Shown: piece by piece, positions 13,582 through 61,220 of the stretch
Layout: each line of letters opens with the position of its first letter
How positions within the stretch are numbered: the stretch's first letter is position 1
Assembly (NCBI GenBank): GCA_965287045.1
Contig: OZ336890.1
Location: forward strand, 17,980,001 to 18,044,000
DNA from: Carcharhinus amblyrhynchos
Lineage: Eukaryota
DNA length: 64,000 bases
Reading direction: 5' to 3'
Translations under genes and position numbers: made by a program
Notes under the pieces: model-generated
What the model was told of the DNA's origin: nothing
Databases searched by the model: none
The model's input: the letters and a program-made list of their open reading frames with translations, nothing else

Positions 13582-14162
13582 ATCCGCACTTCAGCCCAAC
13601 TTTTTTTTATTTGACTGATATTAGATAATAAATAGCCCAGTGATCTGGATATTTGAAAAGGTTGGGATTTACTGAGCAAGCTGAAGGGTTGACAGCTAAA
13701 TCTGCAGTGTTCAAACACAGGCTGGAAGTTTATGGCAAACAAGTTGTTCTGTAACACTAGCAAGAAGGGATTCAGTGAAACAAGCCGTGGCGAATGCTCC
13801 AAAAAGTTCTCTGGAGATTGAGTGATGGAATTTGTAATTAGCTGCTGTAGTGGGCGCTGTGCTTTTTTTTATGATGGCCACTGACATAGTAATTTAATAC
13901 CAGGAAAGTTGGAAAGTGTTTTGAAGGGAGAGAGTGATTATGGAAAGCAGAGTTCACCGATCTGGGGCACTGAGCAGATGGGGATGTGGAAGCGGCTGGA
14001 AGTGACTTACAGAAACGGCCCAGCGAGCAGCAGCTGATAAGGATGGCGAGGAGTGCGAGTGGCCCATTCAGCTGCTGAAAGCTCCAGCTTTCGGGGTCGG
14101 GTGGGAGAACACCTCCAGAGGGCTCGGATGCCTTAAATCCCCGCCTGGGAATTTAACCCCCG

Positions 14163-14186: not shown

Positions 14187-15305
14187 ATGAGCCACCTTCC
14201 AGCTGAAGGGAACGTGTCTGCCTCCCCAGTGGATGCTGGGTTTAATTTGGGGGCTGCAGCCAACAGATCCGGGGGGCTGTGGGCGACCAACGACACCCAG
14301 GACTTTGAGGATGGGGCGGCCTCCAGTATATACGACGTCCTGATCCCCAGCCTGTACTGCCTGGTGTGTGTGCTGGGGCTGGGCGGCAATTCCTTGGTCA
14401 TCTTCAGCATCGTGCACCAGGCCAGGGCCAGGAGCGTGGCCAACATTTACATCCTCAACCTGGCCCTGGCGGATGGCCTCTTCATGCTGGGACTTCCTTT
14501 CCTCGCCATGCAGATCGCCCTCCGCCGCTGGCCCTTTGGAGGATTCATGTGCAGGTTGGTTATGATCTTGGATGGCATCAACCAGTTCACCAGTGTCTTC
14601 TGTATCACCGTGATGAGCATCGACAGGTACCTGGCTGTGGTGCACCCAGTCAGATCTTCCAGGTGGCGCAGCCCCAGGCTGGCAAAGAGAGTGAGTGCCA
14701 TCCTCTGGGTGATCTCCTTCATCCCTGTCATCCCCATGGCCATTTACTCAGGCGTGGATGGTGCTTCAGATGTCTGTACTTTAATCTGGCCAGAGCCTGT
14801 CTTTCTCTGGTCCACCGCCTTCATCATCTACACTTTTGTGCTGGGCTTCGCCCTGCCTTTTGCCATCATCTCCCTGTGCCACATTGTGCTGCTGCTGAGG
14901 ATAAAGAGTGCCCTCCTCTCCCCCCACAGCAGCCAGTCCCACAGCTCCGAGAGGAAAGTCACCACCATGGTGGTGGCCATCGTGCTGGCTTTCGCTACCT
15001 GCTGGCTGCCTTTCTACACCATCAACATCTGTGCCCTCTTCCAACCCATTCCAGAGAGCTTCACTGTCAGGAGATTCTTCGAGTTCATGGTGGTCCTCTC
15101 CTACTTCAACAGCTGCGCCAACCCCATTCTCTACATCTGCCTGTCAGACACTTGCTGGAGAAGCTGCCAGATGTTGCTGTGCCCCAGGTCGGTGCTGAGG
15201 AAGAAGGCCCTGGGGGAGAGGAGGCTGGAGGAGCATCAGATGCAAGGTCTGACCGAGTCCCAGCTCACTGCCTCTGCTGCGGAGCTAGAGAGTGTGTTCA
15301 GATAA
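14187..15305 (+). CDS. Divergent somatostatin receptor (SSTR2/3/5 clade), intronless CDS, 372 aa
   Basis: Seven TM segments; GN(1.50), [36 protein letters not shown] and NSCANPILY motifs; N-glycosylation sequons NVS, NRS, NDT; ORF intact with TAA at 15303-15305; subtype cannot be assigned by eye. Confidence 0.93.
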   Translation: MSHLPAEGNVSASPVDAGFNLGAAANRSGGLWATNDTQDFEDGAASSIYDVLIPSLYCLVCVLGLGGNSLVIFSIVHQARARSVANIYILNLALADGLFMLGLPFLAMQIALRRWPFGGFMCRLVMILDGINQFTSVFCITVMSIDRYLAVVHPVRSSRWRSPRLAKRVSAILWVISFIPVIPMAIYSGVDGASDVCTLIWPEPVFLWSTAFIIYTFVLGFALPFAIISLCHIVLLLRIKSALLSPHSSQSHSSERKVTTMVVAIVLAFATCWLPFYTINICALFQPIPESFTVRRFFEFMVVLSYFNSCANPILYICLSDTCWRSCQMLLCPRSVLRKKALGERRLEEHQMQGLTESQLTASAAELESVFR

Positions 15306-15309
15306 TGCC

Positions 15310-15650
15310 ACCTTCTCCTGGAGGCAACCTATCCTCTCCTGCAGGAAGCCCAACCACTCCTGCCCACACATTCCTGCCCACCCTCTCTGGAATGAAGCCC
15401 ACCCCCTCCTACAGGAAGCCCACCCTCCCCAAGCCCACCTTCTCCGGAATGAAGCCCACCCTCTCCTGCCCACTCTTTCCCGTAGGGAGCCCACCCTCTC
15501 ATGCCTACCCTCTCCTGTAAGGAGCCCACTCCTGTCTACCCTCTCATGCCCACCCTCTTTAGAAGGAAGCCCACCCTCCCCAGCCCACCCCCTCCTGCCT
15601 ATCCTTTCCAGCCCATCCTCTTTTGAAGGAAGCCCACCCTCTCCAGGAGG
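15310..15650. repeat. Imperfect C-rich minisatellite (GAAGCCCACCCTCTCCTGCCCAC-like) just after the stop codon
   Basis: Repeated AGCCCACCCTC units in variable-length periods. Confidence 0.85.
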
Positions 15651-16519: not shown

Positions 16520-16525
16520 ATTAAA
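16520..16525 (+). terminator. Candidate polyadenylation signal of the divergent SSTR gene
   Basis: ATTAAA with TGTA upstream and T/G-rich sequence downstream, near the end of the unique region before the next SINE. Confidence 0.35.
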
Positions 16526-24312: not shown

Positions 24313-25129
24313 TATGACTGGTGATGTGTTAAATTTTCTGAATGACTAAAATGGACATTGGCTTAGATTAGTATGTTCCCCCCACACTCACTCCCTCTAC
24401 TTTTTTTGAGGTGAGGGTTGAATGATTATTAAGTCCACCATCTACAGATGCTGTCAAAGGAGGAGCTGTCACATTCCCAAGCTGATTTGAATATCTTTTA
24501 CAACAGCCAGAATGTACAGTTGACATAAAGGCATCCAGTGTTGGGTGGGTGGTGAACAGGGCAGGGATTGAACATGTGGAGGCTGAATGAGAGTAAAACA
24601 ATTTGAAAACAGAATGGTGTTGCTGCAGCGGGCAAAGGAGATCCACATGCAACTGACCCAAGCTTTACTACTCAACCTCACCTTAACAATGTGACTGTTC
24701 ATTGTTCCATATTAATGCTGATCCGCCATTGCAAAGTTTCTGACATAACAAACAGTTATTAATGAGACCGCATGGTTCATGCCTGCAAACAATAGGACTC
24801 CATGCATTTGATATATCTTCTGTAATGTGGGGAAGTCTAACAAAATACATATGAATGCAAGAACAGGAGCAGGCCATTCAGCCCCTCCAGCTTGTCCCAT
24901 GTTCACTTAGATCATGGGTGAACTGTAACTCAACTCTTGCTGCCTACCCTGATCATGTGACCTTTAATACTCGTGCCCCCCCCCCCCACCCCGGCTTACA
25001 AAAATAATATTGTAAATCAGAATATTTGAATTGCAGTTTGTCCTCTTCAATAATTGCAATGAGAAAGTGGGTCAGCCTAAAGGGTGCCACATTATCATTA
25101 AAAAATGTTAACAGATTATTTATTCATGT

Positions 25130-25605
25130 TAGAGATCTTGGGGTTCAGATCCACAGATGTCTGAAGGTTGCCATTCAAGTGGATAGAACCGTGAAGAAGA
25201 CTTATAGTACGTTAGTGTTTATTAACAGGGGGTTTGAGTTTAAGAGCTGTGGGGTTATGCTGCAACTATACCAGATGTTAGTGAGACCACATTTGGAATA
25301 TTGTGTTCAGTTCTGGTCACCTCACTATAAGAAGGATGTGGAAGCATTGGAGAGAGTGCAAAGGAGATTTACCAGGATGCTGCCTGGTTTGGAGGCTAAG
25401 TCTTATGAGGAAAGGTTGAGGGAGCTGGGGCTTTTCTCTTTGGAGCAGAGAAAGATGAGAGGCGACTTAATAGAGGTTTATAAGATGTTGAGAGGGATTG
25501 ACAGAGTGAATGTGCAGAGACTATTTCCTCGGGTGGATGTAACTGTTACAAGGGGGCATAACTATAAGGTTCATGGTGGGAGATACAGGAGGGATGTCCA
25601 AGGCC
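25130..25605 (+). mobile_element. CR1 LINE ORF2 C-terminal fragment, followed by an inverted SINE head (25605-25665)
   Basis: RDLGVQI...LVRPHLEYCVQFWSP...LERVQRRFTRM...RGDLIEVYK. Confidence 0.9.
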
Positions 25606-27504
25606 GGAATCAAACCTGGGTCTGTGGGTGCTGTGAGGCAGCAGCGCTAACCACTGTGCCACCATAGCAAAAAAGAAACTCAAAAGAAGTCTATTTGAGT
25701 AGGTCACAATTTAATTTAATTGTACTTAATTTGTTCAATGTACACCTGCAAAAACATTCTAAAATTGTAATTTATCATTTTTTTAAAAAAAAAGCTAATA
25801 GCCAGTTCAAATCAACCCATTTTTTGGATCTGTATGAATAACTGGTGTTGCACAGCTCAGATAGGGCACACAATTCCTGCACTGTAAATGAATATCTATT
25901 TTTTTCTTCCCTTGTTCCACAAATTTACTTTGTTCCCCAAATTACATTAGTAACAGATTTAATTTAATTCTCAAGACTGTAGGGATAATGGGACTGTTTG
26001 TGTTAGATCCAATAGTTATTACAATATTAATGGTTAACATATGCTAGGAGTACATGAGTGCATTTATTACTGAGGCAGTGGAATTAAAGCCACAAATAAA
26101 TTTTGCACATGTAATTGAAGTTGAAATTATTTTAAATGTGATTTATGCAAAAGTTTAAAAATGAAACGCCAAAGGCATTCTCTACTAATAAGGTGATCAG
26201 TCAGTGGGACTAACAAGATTCATACATATTTTATTGAGTATTTTTTCACTGTTAACAAAAATAATTTACTTGGAGTTGTTTTTGAAATTCAGACACATGC
26301 TGAGAGTCTGATTGGGAACTGCTCCTGGTTGCTGTCTGGTGATTCCTGTTGAAAGTGCACGTGGGCAGGGTCACTGGGCTGTGACAGAAATTGGGTGCAG
26401 CTGCAAAATGGCCAGGTGACTCTCGCTTGTCCTGTCTGGCAGATGCGCAAGTGCCCCCACCCCACGGGTGAGACCGAAAGGGCACCCGTCATCCATGAAA
26501 CTGCACCCCCCCCACCCCACCCCCAGTTATGGAGAAGGTAAGTGGGTGCAGAAATGGATAAAGGCAGAAAAAGAATTGAAAAGATTTAAAAAATCTCAAT
26601 TAAAAAGATCTGCCTGGACCATGAACTGATAGCGAGAGTCATGCGATTTTTGTCATTCAACAAAACTGTTCAATTCAAAAGTATTTTTAACAACACTTTC
26701 TATTGTGCACATATGCTGGTGACAGTAGTGATGTATTGCCAGTAGTTCCTGTTGGAACTGCATACCAATCCCATTAAAAATATGATACAAATGGAATAAA
26801 ATGACTTACTAAGAATAACCTGCTTCAGTCCATGATTTTTACGATTGTTCTTGATGTGGTTCATCTGCTTTTTTGTTCATAAATTAACAGTGGCCCAAGA
26901 AGACTAACAGATTGCATACTGACAGCAATGTTCATGTTATGATTCCCATATAGACCAATAACTCTTAAAGTGATATCATTTTCCCAGTGACTCACTCAAA
27001 GGACCACACTGTAAGATTCCACATTTTAAGAATTTTACTGTAACAAACATACACTACGATTGAAATAGACATTACTTTGTAGCAACTAACTCACTACAGA
27101 GAAAGTAGTCCCTTGTACCTTCTTAATGCAAATGAACACCCTTCGCCGCACTTATACATTGCATCAATTCAAATTGTGGTCTTGTGATTAAAGTCCAAAG
27201 CTCCTGTTCGCTCTAACATGACATCTTCCTGTTGATTCATGAGAGTGAAACTTCTAGTTCTCTTTATTCAACCTTTGAGCATGATTGAATGGGCATCCCA
27301 TTACAAGGTACCCTCTGGTGATTCCATGGTCTTTAGCTCTTCACAATCCTTGTTTCTCTGAACTTGGCTTCTATCCTTACCAGTCCCCTACTTGGTGATT
27401 TGCCCCAGAAGCAGTTACTTTCTTCAGCCCAGCTTAGCAGCAGTTACTGTGTGTCTTCTCCAGATCTCTCCCTGGCTGACTACTGAGAGCAAGCAGCAAG
27501 TTAC

Positions 27505-28974: not shown

Positions 28975-30257
28975 GCGTTAAGGGGAAGTCGTGTCTGACA
29001 AATTTATTGGAGTTCTATGAGGATGTGTCTAGGGCGGTGGATAGAGAGCCGGTGGATGTGGTCTTTCTTGATTTTCAGAAGGCGTTTGACAAGGTACCTC
29101 ACAAGAGGTTATTGCAGAAGGTAAGGGGGCATGGAGCTGGGGGTAGGGTGTTAGTGTGGATAGGGGATTGGTTGTCAGATAGGAGGCAGAGAGTGGGGGT
29201 TAATGGATGCTATTCGGATTGGCGGTTGGTGACTAGTGGAGTGCCCCAGGGGTCGGTGCTGGGGCCTCAGCTATTTACCATTTATATAGATGATCTGGAG
29301 GAGGGAACCGAGTGTATGGTGTCGAAATTTGACCAAGATTGGTGGAACGGCAAATTGCGCGGAGGGGGTGGAGAGTCTGCAGAAGGATCTAGATAGGCTG
29401 GGTGAATGGGCCAGGAACTGGCAAATGGAATTTAATGTTGGCAAGTGTGAGGTGGTCCACTTTGGTAGGAATAATGGTAGGAAGGGCTATTACTTACGTG
29501 GCGAAAAACTGCAGCAGGCGAAGGTGCAGAGGGACCTCGGGGTCCTTGTGTATGAGTCGCAAAAACCCAACCTGCAGGTGCAGCAGGTGGTCAGGAAGGC
29601 TAATGGGATGCTGGCCTTCATAGCGAGGGGGATTGAATATAAAAGTAGGGAGGTCTTGCTGCAGCTGTATAGGGCATTGGTGAGGCCGCAGCTGGAGTAC
29701 TGTGTGCAGTTTTGGTCGCCGCACTTACGCAAGGATATTTTGGCCTTGGAGGGAGTGCAGAGGAGGTTTACTAGGCTGATACCGGAGTTGAGGGGGGTGA
29801 GCTACGAGGAGAGGCTGAATAAACTAGGCTTGTACTCGTTAGAGTTTAGAAGAATGAGGGGAGATTTCATTGAGACATATAAGATGATGAATGGGATGGA
29901 TAGGATAGAGGTGGAGAGACTCTTCCCGCTCAGAAAGGACAGTAGGACTAGGGGGCACAGCCTCAAGATAAAGGGGGGGGGGCGGTTTAGAACGGAGTTG
30001 AGGAGGAACTTCTTCACTCAAAGGGTGGTGAATCTCTGGAATTCTCTGCCCGTTGAAGTGGTGGAGGCTGCCTCGCTAAATATTTTTAAGACGCAGGTTG
30101 ATGGGTTTTTGATAAGCGAGGGGATTAAGGGTTATGGGGAGAGGGCGGGAATGTGGAACTGAGCCACAACAGATCAGCCATGATCTTATTGAATGGCAGG
30201 GCAGGCTCAAAGGGCTAGATGGCCTACTCCTGCTCCTATTTCTTATGTTCTTATGTT
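28975..30257 (+). mobile_element. Young 5'-truncated CR1 LINE; ORF2 broken by one frameshift
   Basis: [12 protein letters not shown]...[14 protein letters not shown], then a 290-aa C-terminal ORF to the natural stop at 30162; CR1 3'UTR and (TTCTTATG)n tail. Confidence 0.95.
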
Positions 30258-39239: not shown

Positions 39240-39900
39240 ATCCCCCTCGCTCCACTCAAACCCCCTCCCCCACTCTATCCATTCTAGTCCCCTCCCCCAC
39301 TCGATCCGTCTCCCATTCTTTACTCATCCCCCACTCTATCCAACCCCCCATTCTATCCCCCACCCCAATCTATCCCCCATTCTACCCCCTCTCCCACTCT
39401 ATTCCCTTCCCCACTGTATTACTCTATCCAGCCCCCATTCTATTCATCCCCCTCTCTATCCATCCCCCACTTTATCCCCCCCACTATCCATCCCCCCACT
39501 CTATCCCCCACTCTATCCCCCACTCTATCCCCTCCCCCACTGTATCCCCCTCCCCATTCTATCCCCTGCCCTTACTCTGTCCATCACCCCACTCCAGCAT
39601 CCTCCCCCACTCTATCCAATCTCCACTCTAGCTCCCCTCCCCCACTCTATCCATCCCCCACTCTAGCCCCCTCTCCCACACTATCCATCCCCTACTCTTA
39701 TCCAACACACCACTCTATCCCCCTTCCCTACCCTATCTCCCCACTTTAACCCCCTTCCCCATTCTCTCCATCCTCCCTCTGTAACCAACCCTCCCACTCT
39801 ATCCATCCCACTATCCATCTATTTATCCCACACTCTATCCCATCCCCACTCTATCCATCCCTCCCCCCACTCTTTCCATCTAATTCACTCTATCCCAACA
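39240..39900. repeat. (CCCCACTCTAT)n-like degenerate minisatellite, left block
   Basis: Repeated CCCCACTCTATCC; almost no G on the plus strand. Confidence 0.9.
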
Positions 39901-40825
39901 CTGTTTGTAATATATTTAAATGATTTGGAAGAAATGTAACTGGTTTGATTAGTAAGTTTGTGGACAACATAAAGGTTGGTCAAATTGCAGATAGCGATGA
40001 GGACCATCAGAAGATGCAATAGGGTATAGATTGATTGGAGGCTTGAGCAGAGAGACGGCAGATGGAGTTTAATCTGGACAAATGTGGGATATTACATTTT
40101 GGAAGGTCTGATACAGATGGGAAATATACAGTAAATGGCACAACCCTTAAAATTATTGATAGGCAGAGGGATCTGGGTGGCAACACAATTGTAGAAGGTA
40201 GTCAAGAAGGCATACGGCATGCTTGCCTTCATCGGCCAGGGCATTGAGTTTAAAAATTGGCTTTATAGAACCTTAGTTCTATAATATAGTGTCCAATTCT
40301 GGTCAGCACACTACCAGAAGGATGTGGAGGCTTTGGAGAGAGTACAGAAAAGATTTACCAGGATGTTGCCTGGTGTGGAGGGCATTAGCTATGAAGAAAG
40401 GTTGAAGAAGCTTGGTTTGTTCTCACTGGAATGACAGAGTTGAGGGTCGACTTGTTAGAAGTCTACAAGATTATGAGGGGCATGGACACAATGGATAGTC
40501 AGAAGCTTTTTCCCAGGGTGGAAGAGTTAATTACTAGAGGGCATAGGTTCAAAGTGTGAGAAGCGAAGTTTAAATGATTTGTATGAGGCGAGTTTTTTAC
40601 ACAGAGGGTGGTGGGTGCCTGGAACTTGATGCTGGGGGTGGTAGTGGAAGCAGATATGATAGTGGCTTTTAAAGGGCATCTTGACAAATACTCGAGTAGG
40701 ATGGGAATAGAAGGATATAGTCCCCAGAAGGATGTGGGGTTTTAGTTCAGACAGGCAGCATGTTTGGTGCAGCTTGGAGAGCTGAAGGGCCTGTTCCTGT
40801 ACTTTTCTTTGGTCTTTGTTCTTTC
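39901..40825 (+). mobile_element. CR1 LINE 3' part inserted into the minisatellite
   Basis: MEFNLDKC..HFGRS; TTCTGGTCAGCACACTACCAGAAGGATGTGGAGGC; GGGCCTGTTCCTGT..TTCTTTGGTCTTTGTTCTTT tail; same subfamily as 9470-10580. Confidence 0.88.
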
Positions 40826-41192
40826 TTCTATCCATCCTCCACCTTATCCCCTCCACTCTACCCAACCCCACATTATCCCCCTCTCCACTCTATCCTCACA
40901 CTTCTATCCCCTCACTCTATCCCCTCCCCATTATCTCCACAACTCTATTCCCCCGTCTACCCCCTCCCCCAATCTAACCCCATCCTCACTCTATACCTCG
41001 ACTCTACCACCCCCCACTCTATTTGCCTCCCCTCTCTATTCCCCCCACTCTATCCCGCTCCCCAACTCGATCCCTGCAGCTCCATTCCCCTCTCTATCTC
41101 CTCCCGCAATCTAAGACCCTCCCCACTCTATCCCGCTATTCTATCCCCTCCACTCAATCATCCGCCACTCCATCCACTCTCCCTCCTTCCCC
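40826..41192. repeat. (CCCCACTCTAT)n-like minisatellite, right block
   Basis: Same unit resumes after the CR1 tail. Confidence 0.88.
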
Positions 41193-41849
41193 TCGAAACA
41201 TTCGAGTGTTTTCAGATTAAAATAGTTTTAAAGATGATGAATGGTTTGAAGTGACGGATTTACTAGGAAGGTAGATCAGGAAACTGGGGCGCAATTCAGG
41301 CAACATTCACCCAAGGAAAGCCTGGCGGCTAAACCCGCTCAGTGTCACCATTGAAGAAAGTGATGTTAGTAAAGATTCTACATACATTTTCCACATTGCC
41401 CTGCCTCAGATCCCACTGCAAATGTTCTCAGCAAACTTAGAAAATTCAGGCGCAGCGGTGCATAAAAGTGACTCATTCAATACAAATTCCAACAGCATGA
41501 TTGGAGTTGAAGGAGAGACATGATTGACTCTTTCTGTCCTACCATGTTTCCAGGCGTCTACTCCACTGGGCTCTTTCTCACTGTCAGGAGTAGGGGGGAG
41601 CGGTGATTTCTCACCAGAAGAGATCGCAATTCGCGGTTGCTGTTGATTCTGTCACTCCGCCTATCCTTTTGATTTCGCCAATGCGCTCACACAGGTTGGG
41701 AGCTCCGTCCCTGCTGTCTTTCACGCCGGAAGCGGAGTTCACCCAAGCAAAAGTCAGCGCACCCACATCAGATCAGATCAGCTTCCCTGCCTCCTGCCAT
41801 CTGCAATCCAATCCCAATATCGCTCCTACCCTACTTCCCTGTGAAACAG

Positions 41850-42388
41850 CACACACACACACACACTCACACAGTCTAACATACACACACACACACACTC
41901 ACATAGCCTAACACAAACACACACACACAGTCTAACATACACACACACACACACTCACACAGCCTAACATACACACACACACACTCACATAGCCTAACAC
42001 AAACACACACACACAGTCTAACATACACACACACACACACACACAGCCGAACATACACACACACACACTCACATAGCCTAACACAAACACACACACAGAC
42101 TCACACAGCCTAACATACACACACACTCTCAAACACACTCACACAGCCTAACACACACACACACAAACTCACACTCACACATACTCATTTACACAAACTT
42201 ACACATACACTCATATACTCATACACACACACTCANNNNNNNNNNNNNNNNNNNNNNNNNNNNNNNNNNNNNNNNNNNNNNNNNNNNNNNNNNNNNNNNN
42301 NNNNNNNNNNNNNNNNNNNNNNNNNNNNNNNNNNNNNNNNNNNNNNNNNNNNNNNNNNNNNNNCTCACACATACACACTCACTCACAC
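41850..42388. repeat. CA-rich compound minisatellite (AGCCTAACAT(AC)n units)
   Basis: Repeated AGTCTAACATACACAC / AGCCTAACACAAACAC; spans an assembly gap. Confidence 0.92.
42236..42363. other. Assembly gap (128 N)
   Basis: Run of N characters. Confidence 1.
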
Positions 42389-42850
42389 CTGTCCTTCGCA
42401 CCATGCGTGTGCAGGGAGGGAGAGGGTTGCATCCACTTCAGAGAGCATGAAATGAGAATTGAGCAATGGACATCACAGAACATGTCGATAGAACCCAGCC
42501 ATATAACCCTCTGCAGCATCGAGTGCTTTCACTACTTCTGGCAAGTGCAGAGACAGAGCTAGTCCAGTCTGCACCTTCCAGATTAGTGTGGGAGTTAACA
42601 GTGACTTACTCCCCCGTTCCCCGCCTTCCCATGGTGACTTATCCCCCTCTCCACATCCACCCCAAATATGGCCAAATAAAGCCCCTCATTCGTGGGAATG
42701 AATGAAATCGCTCACCTACACTCAAGAGGATGTTCTCTAATGTGTTTTTACAGCATGAACACTTACTACAGCGCAGTCTAGGTGAAGAAGAATGCTAGCT
42801 GTGTTGGGAAGGTATAGTTCTGTTGGGGATGCTCTCGTTCCCTTAGGAGT

Positions 42851-43100
42851 GCTATAGTTTTGCTGGGAATGCTACAGTTTTGCTGGGAATGCTATAGTTT
42901 TGCTGGGAATGTTATAGTTCTGCTGGGAATGCTACAGTTTTGCTGGGAATGCTTTGGTTCTGCTGGGAATATTATAGTTCTGCTGGGAATATTATAGTTC
43001 TGCTGGGAATGCTATAGTCTGTTGGGAATGCTATAGTCTGTTGGGAACGTTATAGTCTGCTGGGAATGCTATAGTCTGCTGGGAATGCTACAGTCTGCTG
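42851..43100. repeat. Tandem repeat: 8 x 20 bp (GCTATAGTTTTGCTGGGAAT) then ~4.5 x 19 bp
   Basis: Directly visible; degenerate units also at ~42790-42835. Confidence 0.95.
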
Positions 43101-44860: not shown

Positions 44861-45988
44861 ATGGCTTTGGACCTCTCCACGCCGCTCAGCACCACGGCGG
44901 AGTGGCTCTTTGAGGAAGGGGGAAATCTCTCCAGCGGGATCTACCCCAATCTCACCCAGAACATCAGCAAGCCCACCAACCAGACTGAGCTGGACATGAG
45001 CGGCAGCGTGTTCCTGCCCTTCATCTACTTTGTGGTGTGTGTAGTGGGTCTCAGCGGCAACACGCTGGTCATCTATGTGATCTTCCGCTACGCCAAGATG
45101 AAGACGGTGACCAACATCTACATCCTGAACCTGGCCATCGCGGACGAGCTCTTTATGGTGGCGCTGCCCTTCTTTGCCACCCAGGCGGCCCTGGCCCACT
45201 GGCCCTTCGGCCAGGCTGCCTGCCGGGTGCTGATGACCCTGGACGGCATCAACCAGTTCACCAGCATCTTCTGCCTGACTGTGATGAGCATTGACCGCTA
45301 CCTGGCCGTGGTCCACCCCATCAAATCCTCCAAGTGGCGCAAGCCTCGGCTGGCCAAGCTGGTGAACGGGGCGGTGTGGTTCATCTCCCTGCTGGTTATT
45401 CTGCCCATCATGATCTACTCGGCCGTGCAGACCCGCAATGGCAGGAGCAGCTGCACCATCACCTGGCCCAGCCAGAACCCCTCCTGGTACACCGCCTTTG
45501 GCATCTACACCTTCGCCCTGGGCTTCTTCCTGCCCCTGACCATCATCTGCCTCTGCTATCTCATGATCATCATCAAGGTCAAAGCCTCGGGCATCCGCGT
45601 GGGATCCTCCAAGCGCAAGAAATCCGAGAAGAAGGTCACCAGGATGGTCTCCATTGTGGTGGCGGTCTTTGTCTTCTGCTGGCTGCCTTTCTACATCTTC
45701 AACTTCCTGCCCCTGGCTGTGGATGTCAAGCCCACCCTGGCCATGAAGGGCTTCTATGAGTTCGTGGTCATCCTCTCCTACGCCAATAGTTGCGCCAACC
45801 CCATCCTCTACGCCTTCCTGTCCGACAACTTCAAGAAGAGCTTTCAGAACGTGCTGTGCCTGAAGAAGGTGAGTGGCCTGGATGAGGCTGACCGCAGTGA
45901 CAGCCGCCAGGACAAATCCAGACTCCAGGATGTCACAGAGACTCAGAGGACCCTGCTGAATGGCGATGATCTCCAAACCAGTATTTAA
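44861..45988 (+). CDS. SSTR2: Somatostatin receptor type 2 (SSTR2a-type), intronless CDS, 375 aa
   Basis: [80 protein letters not shown] and the diagnostic tail [22 protein letters not shown]; strong Kozak AAGATGG; synteny with SLC39A11. Confidence 0.97.
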
Positions 45989-59665: not shown

Positions 59666-61220
59666 AAATTTGTTTGAATTTTTTAAGGAGGTGACCACGG
59701 GTGTAGATGAAGTGAAAAGTATTGTTTCTTGCAAGCTATTCAGACAAAACATGCCGTTCATAGAGAAGGAAACAAGAGAGTGCAGAATGTAGTGTTACAC
59801 TCATAGCTAGGGTGTAGAGAAAGATCAACTTAATGCAAGGTAAGTCCATTCAAAAGTCTGACAGCAGCAGGGAAGAAGCTGTTCTTGAGTTGGTTGGTAC
59901 GTGACCTCAGGCTTTGTATCTTTTTCCCAAAGGAAGAAGGTGAAAGAGAGATGGGTAGTGCAGTTGATGTAGTTTACTTGGATGTCAGCAAAGCCTTTGA
60001 TAAGGTCCCACATGGGAGACTTGTAAAGAAGGTAAATTCACCTGGGTTACAGGATAATTTGATAAAGTGGAATCAAAATTGGCTCAGTTGTAGGAGACAG
60101 AGGGTGATGACAGAAGGTTGCTTTAGTAACTGGAAGCCAGTGCCCAGTGGTATACCACAGGGATCTGTGTTGTGCCCCCCCCCATTATTTGTCATTTATA
60201 TAAATGACATTGATGTGGAGGGTAGGATTAGTAAGTTTGCAGATGACACAAAGATGGGCTGTGTGGTTAACACTGAGATGGAGTGTCTTGGGCTACGAGA
60301 AGATATAGATGGAATGGTCAAATGGGCAGATAAGTGGCAGATGGAATTTAACCCTGAAAAGTGGGAGAGTTTACATTTTGGAAGGAGTAATTTGATAAGG
60401 AAGTACTCAATGAATGATAGGACATTAGGAAGTTGGGTGAACAAAGCAACCTCTGTGTGTTTGTCCACAGATCTCTGAAGGCGGAAGGGCATGTTAGTAG
60501 GGTGGTGAAAAAGGCATATGGGAACATTTGCCTTCAATTAATCAAGACACAGATTACAAAAGCAGGGAAGTCATGTTGGAGCTGTATAGAACATTGATGA
60601 GGCCACGGCTAGTTTACTGTGTGCACTTCTGGTCACCACATTAGCAGAACAAAGAACAAAGAACAATACAGCACGGGAAACAGGCCCTTTGGCCCAATGA
60701 GCCTGCGAAGGATGTGATTGCACTGGAGGAGATGCAGAGGAAATTCATCATGATGCTCCATGGGATGGAACACTCAAGATATGAAGAAAGGTTGTGTAGA
60801 TTTGGATTCTCTTCATTGGAGCAGAGAAGACTGAGGGGTGACCTAATTGAGGTGTACAAGATTATGAGAGACATGGACAGAGAGGATAAGGAGCAGCTGT
60901 TCCATTTAGTTGAAGGTTCAATCACGAGGGGACATGGGTTTAAGGTGAGGGTCAGGAGGTTTAGGGGGGATGCGAGCAAAAGCTATTTTACCCCAAGAGT
61001 GGTGATGGTCTGGAGTGTGCTGCCTGGAAGAGTGATAGAGGCCAGTTGCCTCACATCCTTTAAAAAGTATCTGCATAAGCAGTTGGTACATCATAACGTT
61101 CAGGGCTATAGCTAAAGTGCTGGCAGGTGGGATTAGGTGGGATTTCAAGTGTTTCTAATATGTCAGTGTGGACTTGATGGGTCGAAGGGCCACTGCTGTA
61201 TGATGCTATTCTATGAATAC
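59666..61220 (+). mobile_element. CR1 LINE 3' part with nested antisense Rex1 tail (~59711-59935) and antisense CR1 tail (~60645-60706)
   Basis: [17 protein letters not shown]...SGIPQGSVL...KFADDTK...RLRGDLIEVYKIM; tail GGGTCGAAGGGCC...TTCTATGA. Confidence 0.9.

Follow-up and report, generated by a model that had tools for sequence, protein, structure and literature searches.

The standard count of ancestral somatostatin receptors is six (PMC3560075; PMC5818035, the latter a 2018 review; here and below the literature is cited from excerpts of the papers). Further divergent genes have been described under several names. SSTRX of the coelacanth (Ocampo Daza et al. 2012; PMC3560075) is a single-exon gene that shares its orientation with SSTR2, about 22 kb away; in the published tree a long branch joined it basally to the SSTR2 cluster, and it was interpreted as a coelacanth-specific duplicate. 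In gar and teleosts, an intronless divergent neighbour of sstr2 has been termed sstr2-like and was read as a local duplicate of ray-finned fishes with six helices, possibly undergoing pseudogenisation (PMC11224465), and SSTR2B has been reported from gar and five fishes (PMC6504862); a divergent sstr2 neighbour has also been equated with SSTR6 in this literature (PMC11224465, PMC6504862). The name SSTR7 denotes a seventh receptor, placed in a subgroup distinct from both SSTR1/4/6 and SSTR2/3/5 by a table in PMC5207463 that goes back to Yun et al. (2015); the name is also used for a gene of the topmouth culter (PMC9576932).

The structural reference for the present comparison is human SSTR2 (PDB: 7wic, 7xat; PMC9343605, PMC9122944), in which D3.32 and Q3.36 are the anchors of the somatostatin Trp-Lys pharmacophore (PMC9343605), and K246 and R155 are named as Gi contacts (PMC9343605, PMC9122944). 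In the C-terminal tail of SSTR2, T354, T356 and T359 are phosphorylated by GRK2/3, a step linked to arrestin recruitment and endocytosis, and the PDZ ligand may aid recycling and restrain breakdown in lysosomes (PMC6148080). A functional analogy from another receptor family is provided by ACKR3, an arrestin-biased scavenger receptor, which combines canonical microswitches with divergent intracellular loops and has its ligand in common with a signalling partner (PMC9278869).

The divergent receptor gene and its locus

The window analysed here is a stretch of 64,000 nucleotides from the shark Carcharhinus amblyrhynchos (contig OZ336890.1), referred to below as the source genome, and includes two receptor genes:

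14187..15305, + strand: SSTRX/sstr2-like orthologue P0001, single-exon ORF, 372 amino acids
44861..45988, + strand: canonical SSTR2, P0002, 375 amino acids, ending QTSI, same-strand tandem partner

The P0001 gene is 29.6 kb upstream of the SSTR2 gene, the two products are 48% identical, and a third receptor copy is absent from the window. P0001 matches Pfam 7tm_1 (E value 2.8e-63), as expected of an intronless class A seven-transmembrane receptor, and its best PDB matches are SSTR2 and SSTR5 (1e-98), as compared with 1e-62 for opioid receptors. The TM7 signature of somatostatin receptors (PMC6148080) was found in P0001 with one change. The AlphaFold model has seven helices and helix 8, at a low confidence (pLDDT 59.6) that is too weak for the geometry of loops or of His232. 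Among the matches listed, the closest database protein is P0003 from Mustelus asterias, which is 98% identical to P0001, with 9 differences located outside the helices except for two Ile/Val swaps.

Contigs of the runs X1 and X3 span the whole P0001 ORF, starting at 13971 and 13901, respectively, and two larger runs extend upstream. Because the X1 and X3 contigs, from runs guessed to be RNA, share no common start, they give at most a weak hint of expression and are not counted as evidence here. In the X1 contig position 14880 is unchanged and a single C>T was counted, at 14753; in X3, 8 of the 12 changes beyond the N-terminus are synonymous, among the changes listed. A preliminary description of this DNA had considered that the substitutions in the receptor might be private to this assembly. 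They are not, as His5.58 and Cys8.50 recur in P0003 from M. asterias, and the changed residues of P0001 are beyond chance and are not assembly errors.

C-rich degenerate tandem repeats occupy 15315-15646, directly after the P0001 stop codon, and an ATTAAA is present at 16520, near the expected end of the X3 contig as estimated from its length. Upstream of SSTR2, low-complexity C-rich/AC arrays extend over 39279-42232 and 42805-43100, with a 20-base tandem repeat in 15 copies, and a stretch of N is located at 42236-42363. The ORFs at 25059-25667, 29290-30162 and 59951-61115 resemble what we take to be reverse-transcriptase tails of CR1-type LINE elements. The neighbouring SSTR2 (44861-45988) carries Y7.35, F2.60 and P6.58, so that at 7.35 human SSTR2 is matched more closely by P0001 than by the shark's own SSTR2.

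Orthologues and phylogenetic position

A search with P0001 (7995 candidates scored) returned a tier of proteins at 58-81% identity, from sharks, rays, chimaera, coelacanth, sturgeons and paddlefish, followed by a fall to about 50% for the canonical SSTR2/3/5. A profile search added the bowfin, an exhaustive profile search added the teleosts Albula, Megalops, Tetraodon, Amphiprion and Larimichthys, and further species came from cluster look-ups. Tetrapod, lungfish, bichir and gar members were not found among the matches listed, which are top hits only, and loss is not thereby proven. The set of 32 orthologues used for residue counts contains one sequence per species, second sturgeon copies and certain skate sequences being omitted. 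Four partial teleost proteins, P0299, P0352, P0385 and P0418 (from Tetraodon, Amphiprion, Larimichthys and one unclear source), were assigned by profile score and motif and were excluded from trees and counts.

In a first tree of 63 rows, built with a quick method, an MCHR-type protein was drawn onto the long stem of the orthogroup. The tree was rebuilt without this protein and 16 other rows, leaving 46 rows, and a later tree had 36 rows; the root was formed by two source-genome proteins which we take to be of NPBWR type. Judging by the trees and by the PDB matches given above, P0001 groups with the somatostatin receptors and not with NPBWR-type or opioid receptors. Support for the orthogroup is 100/100 in the trees of 46 and 36 rows, with P0001 in a 100/100 clade with coelacanth and ray-finned proteins. 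In both trees the orthogroup divides as the species do, separating cartilaginous from bony fishes; in the 36-row tree the support is 98/99 for the cartilaginous part and 96/82 for the bony-fish part. Its stem branch is long, with 1.3-1.5 changes per column.

P0001 was ruled out by AU tests as an SSTR2 orthologue or recent duplicate. Placing the divergent receptor and SSTR2 of the window as sisters gave p=5e-52, and a coelacanth-only duplication, in which the divergent coelacanth receptor and coelacanth SSTR2 are sisters, gave p=2e-5. Since the coelacanth-only duplication is rejected, the orthogroup predates the split between sharks and bony fishes, and its origin is no later than the last common ancestor of jawed vertebrates. 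The orthogroup is sister to SSTR2 at 91/84 (46 rows) and 91/88 (36 rows), which falls short of firm, and a position outside SSTR2/3/5, i.e., an origin before the SSTR2/3/5 split, was not rejected (AU p=0.12). With respect to the genome doublings, an origin either before or after may be compatible with these results.

In 11 of the 12 species with both genes listed, the orthologue and SSTR2 share record length, although presence on the same record is not adjacency. The exception is Megalops cyprinoides, whose listed SSTR2 is on another record; beside this it should be noted that teleosts carry two SSTR2 copies. The two Albula genes bear consecutive locus tags, on a contig of 492 kb. The gene model P0249 of the paddlefish (Polyodon) wrongly fuses the orthologue and then SSTR2, which is evidence of gene order, the orthologue preceding SSTR2. 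Searching for SLC39A11 with the Pfam Zip profile was uninformative on synteny, the contig of the window being absent among 34 matches (98 of 2591 candidates scored).

Elsewhere, the source genome contains genes that we take to be SSTR3-type, SSTR5-type and, in two cases, SSTR1/4/6-type, and the P0001 gene is thus no substitute for a missing SSTR3 or SSTR5. One SSTR1/4/6-type gene, L008 (G000:C12), encodes a receptor whose residue 3.36 is Gln and whose ECL2 contains an inserted Gly/Glu-rich repeat. Another receptor, L010 (G000:C18), presumably MCHR-like, has DHY where DRY is expected. On the ligand side there are at least four somatostatin-type genes (L011, L012, L013 and L014). SS-14 is encoded by two of these; the other two specify a Pro2 variant and a divergent peptide that ends in CKLFFWKTFSHC.

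Relation to previously named genes

The coelacanth protein P0015 is 63% identical to P0001, is on the same record as SSTR2 and falls inside the orthogroup. From this position we infer that P0015 is the SSTRX of PMC3560075, the interval given in that paper corresponding to 341 amino acids as compared with 363 for P0015. The P0001 gene resembles SSTRX in its single exon, its SSTR2 neighbour and the shared orientation. The account differs in that PMC3560075 covered no sharks and, in the text consulted, discusses no coupling motifs, and in that the coelacanth-specific origin is rejected here. Bowfin and teleost proteins of the sstr2-like/SSTR2B character also join the orthogroup and are putatively the same as the gar and tilapia genes of PMC11224465 and PMC6504862; unlike the gene described there, the orthogroup of P0001 is older and P0001 has seven predicted helices.

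SSTR7, as tabulated in PMC5207463, may be the gene of the P0001 orthogroup, and the match of the topmouth culter gene to it is putative. Yun et al. (2015) may already treat the gene as a distinct subtype, in which case the phylogenetic part of the present work would be less new. In databases, the shark orthologues are labelled SSTR2-like or SSTR5-like. The gene has likely been noticed three or four times under separate names (SSTRX, SSTR2B, sstr2-like and perhaps SSTR7). In the open literature, subscription journals being outside this coverage, we found no paper joining the shark, coelacanth and ray-finned genes, and no description of a somatostatin scavenger receptor or of the contrast between pocket and coupling surface reported below.

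Ancient and recent changes in the receptor

The sequence features of P0001 relevant to ligand binding and coupling, with their occurrence in the 32 orthologues, are as follows:

14415..14435, + strand: ICL1 HQARARS; this form in 2/32, KM[KR] kept in 18/32
14475..14477, + strand: G97 at 2.51 (ADGLFM), orthogroup marker; G in 31/32, with E, V or gap in 236 canonical receptors
14571..14585, + strand: DGINQ, with D129 at 3.32 (codon 14571) and Q133 at 3.36 (14583); 32/32
14622..14630, + strand: DRY motif, residues 146-148; 32/32
14775..14777, + strand: ECL2 cysteine C197 (45.50); 32/32
14880..14882, + strand: H232 at 5.58, codon CAC; His in 2, Cys in 4, Tyr in 26 of 32
14892..14969, + strand: end of TM5, ICL3 and start of TM6, net charge +3; orthogroup 0 to +6, canonical +7 to +12
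14928-14957, + strand: ICL3 SSQSHSSERK
15012..15104, + strand: TM6-TM7 pocket F6.51, N6.55 (N280, 15024), F7.35, V7.39, Y7.43 (Y306, 15102); each 32/32
15120..15134, + strand: NPILY (NPxxY), residues 312-316; Y7.53 in 32/32
15144..15167, + strand: helix 8 SDTCWRSC (DTCWRSC from 15147), C323 at 8.50; Phe8.50 in 24/32
15252..15269, + strand: distal tail cluster T356-E-S358-Q-L-T361, aligned with human SSTR2 T354/T356/T359
15288..15305, + strand: C-terminus ESVFR and stop, without class I PDZ ligand

Each of the residues and motifs that the preliminary description had reported as kept (D3.32, Q3.36, N6.55, Y7.43, the ECL2 Cys, DRY and NPxxY) was located in P0001. Its replacement of Y5.58 by His was borne out by the CAC codon at 14880-14882, and the altered ICL3, helix 8 and ICL1 and the PDZ-less end ESVFR are likewise present in the sequence, ICL1 and the C-terminus being outside the interval 14571..15170 to which they had been assigned.

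Across the orthologues, nine pocket residues (D3.32, Q3.36, C45.50, F5.38, F6.51, N6.55, F7.35, V7.39 and Y7.43), DRY and Y7.53 are invariant in 32/32. The reference for intracellular changes is a set of 236 canonical SSTR2/3/5-type proteins, which were picked by profile score and are therefore somewhat circular and not independent as a comparison; Y5.58 and F8.50 are present in 236/236. The net charge of the TM5-ICL3-TM6 segment ranges from 0 to +6 in the orthogroup and from +7 to +12 in all 236 canonical receptors, with no overlap. At the two positions named as Gi contacts, K246 is Lys in 0/32 and R155 (ICL2) is Arg in 1/32, with S/T instead. F314 before helix 8 occurs in 0/32 (C/G/Y instead) as compared with 236/236, and a class I PDZ end in 2/32 as compared with 223/236. 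Because the orthogroup is mostly without a PDZ end, P0001 is not classed as a canonical SST1-6 subtype. Based on these alignments, loss of the basic ICL3, Gly2.51, the change of R155 to S/T and of F314 to C/G/Y, and loss of the PDZ ligand are traits of the whole orthogroup.

Other changes are confined to single lineages. His5.58 is found only in the window and in M. asterias, the four Cys are in carpet sharks, and Cys8.50 is present in the same two species as His5.58. With His5.58, Cys8.50 and the ICL1 ARARS in only 2/32, these changes arose recently within a lineage and do not underlie the subtype; as an orthogroup-defining feature, His5.58 was ruled out by the Tyr of 26/32. Catsharks keep Tyr5.58, and at least two separate losses of Y5.58 are therefore required. 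The claim of a kept pocket with an altered G-protein face thus extends to the whole orthogroup, except for His5.58, Cys8.50 and ICL1 ARARS, and the idea that orthologues might conserve H5.58 fails.

The carpet shark proteins P0257, P0419, P0420 and P0421 combine Cys5.58 with an intact pocket core, and helix 8 is deleted in three carpet sharks (Chiloscyllium, Hemiscyllium), the most extreme natural test case. In bowfin and teleosts (P0258, P0277, P0278 and P0284), Asn7.45 is replaced with Trp in all four (SYSWSCANP-type motif). Position 7.45, which we take to be part of the sodium pocket, is invariant across the 236 canonical receptors. The distal Ser/Thr cluster aligns in most sharks, rays and the coelacanth, partly in sturgeon, and is unrecognisable in bowfin and teleosts.

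Conservation of the pocket and of the intracellular face

The contrast was quantified in 13 species having both the orthologue and SSTR2; as sites and species are non-independent, p-values for this comparison make it look more certain than it is. Within-group identity of the pocket core (11 positions) is 95.5% in the orthogroup and 92.5% in SSTR2, whereas at 15 Gi-contact positions, taken from PMC9343605 and PMC9122944, it is 54.9% as against 97.1%. The corresponding values are 28.3% and 97.4% for ICL3 and 64.5% and 81.6% overall, and omission of the two most divergent species altered the contrast little. Among 156 sites invariant in SSTR2, those still invariant in the orthogroup are 9 of 61 intracellular sites and 50 of 95 others. 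The ratio of intracellular identity to that of the rest is 0.81 in the orthogroup, as compared with 1.22 in SSTR2, 1.16 in SSTR5 and 1.05 in SSTR3 (ten sequences each, the SSTR3 and SSTR5 sets not being species-matched). Across the jawed-fish lineages sampled, selection has therefore kept the core of the pocket, with its peptide-anchoring residues, and most activation switches, and has relaxed its hold on the intracellular surface that is nearly fixed in SSTR2/3/5. The pocket rim is variable as well (39.9% in the orthogroup vs 74.8% in SSTR2, 13 species); the signal is thus due in part to fast evolution in general, and a change of ligand may have taken place.

Compared with human SSTR2 as described in the excerpts of PMC9343605 and PMC9122944, P0001 retains the pocket core, the microswitches except for 5.58, and the distal Thr cluster. 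It differs in lacking the basic ICL3, the PDZ ligand and, in the tail alignment, any counterpart of S341/S343, and in its altered helix 8 and pocket rim.

Proposed function and alternatives

We propose, as a reading with an even chance of being correct, that P0001, an ancient tandem paralogue of SSTR2, likely still binds somatostatin-family peptides, couples weakly to Gi and acts mainly as a modulator or sink. The Trp-Lys of the peptide would dock on D3.32/Q3.36 as in SSTR2, and the ligands would be FWKT-type peptides, at least four of which are encoded in the source genome. The intact DRY, PIF, CWxP and NPxxY switches would leave the receptor able to activate, and the lost basic residues of ICL3 and ICL2 would make Gi engagement less productive. 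Phosphorylation of the kept distal Ser/Thr cluster by GRKs may lead to uptake through arrestin, and a receptor lacking the PDZ ligand would be degraded more readily than recycled; the kept T356/S358/T361 together with the absent PDZ ligand fits a modulator or sink. His5.58 and Cys8.50 would be later, further losses in the source lineage, tolerated because the intracellular face is under weak constraint. A single mechanism may fail to account for the entire clade, given that bowfin and teleosts show no recognisable tail motif and that three carpet sharks are missing helix 8. A stronger version, in which this seventh somatostatin receptor of jawed vertebrates would be a G-protein-uncoupled, ACKR3-like scavenger kept from chimaera to teleosts and lost in tetrapods, is possible but less likely, with about half the weight of the main reading. 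By analogy with ACKR3 (PMC9278869), intact microswitches would be compatible with uncoupling; however, ACKR3 belongs to another family and keeps Y5.58, and its uncoupling is ascribed to the shape of ICL2 and a compact cleft (PMC9278869).

The intact DRY, P5.50, F6.44, W6.48 and NPxxY would also suit an ordinary, fast-evolving Gi-coupled somatostatin receptor in which the loop changes slightly shift trafficking or efficacy. The core alpha5-helix contacts R3.50, V3.54, hydrophobic 34.51, R34.57, V6.37 and S8.47 are mostly kept, which leaves room for real G-protein coupling, as are largely the SE[KR][KR] at the start of TM6 and, in 26/32, Y5.58; moreover, ICL3-Gi contacts are usually unstable in class A receptors (PMC9122944). 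What makes such a receptor possible but unlikely is that the intracellular face is the least conserved part here and the most conserved in SSTR2/3/5, that the ICL3 charge ranges do not overlap, and that Y5.58 was lost twice. The long stem branch with its fixed new states (G2.51, S/T155 and C314) could instead reflect a switch to Gq/11 or G12/13, or to another ligand, e.g., a fish-specific somatostatin, and the variable pocket rim and the somatostatin-type genes of the source genome, at least four with one divergent, point the same way. Such a switch would be expected to produce a new conserved intracellular state, yet ICL3 is only 25-28% identical among the orthologues, and the pocket core matches that of SSTR2, including the SRIF1-type Q2.63/N6.55/F7.35; we consider it improbable.

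Pseudogenisation has been suggested for the fish sstr2-like gene (PMC11224465), and decay under relaxed selection, at least in the source shark lineage, would agree with the clustering of His5.58, Cys8.50 and the ICL1 changes in that lineage, with the loss of helix 8 in carpet sharks and with the absence of a tetrapod or lungfish orthologue among the matches listed. It is nevertheless quite improbable for a gene whose ORF is intact and whose nine pocket residues are held in 32/32 across the major jawed-fish lineages. Decay is also at odds with the differences from M. asterias, which avoid the helices apart from the two Ile/Val swaps, and with the mostly synonymous X3 changes among those listed beyond the N-terminus.

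Significance

Several separately named oddities are united here as one receptor subtype that is older than the split between sharks and bony fishes, which corrects the view of the gene as lineage-specific or decaying. With the same pocket, Tyr, His or Cys at 5.58 and, in some species, no helix 8, the subtype offers a natural experiment in how class A receptors couple. Should it clear somatostatin instead of signalling, the receptor would be a new control point in growth-hormone and pancreatic regulation in fishes.
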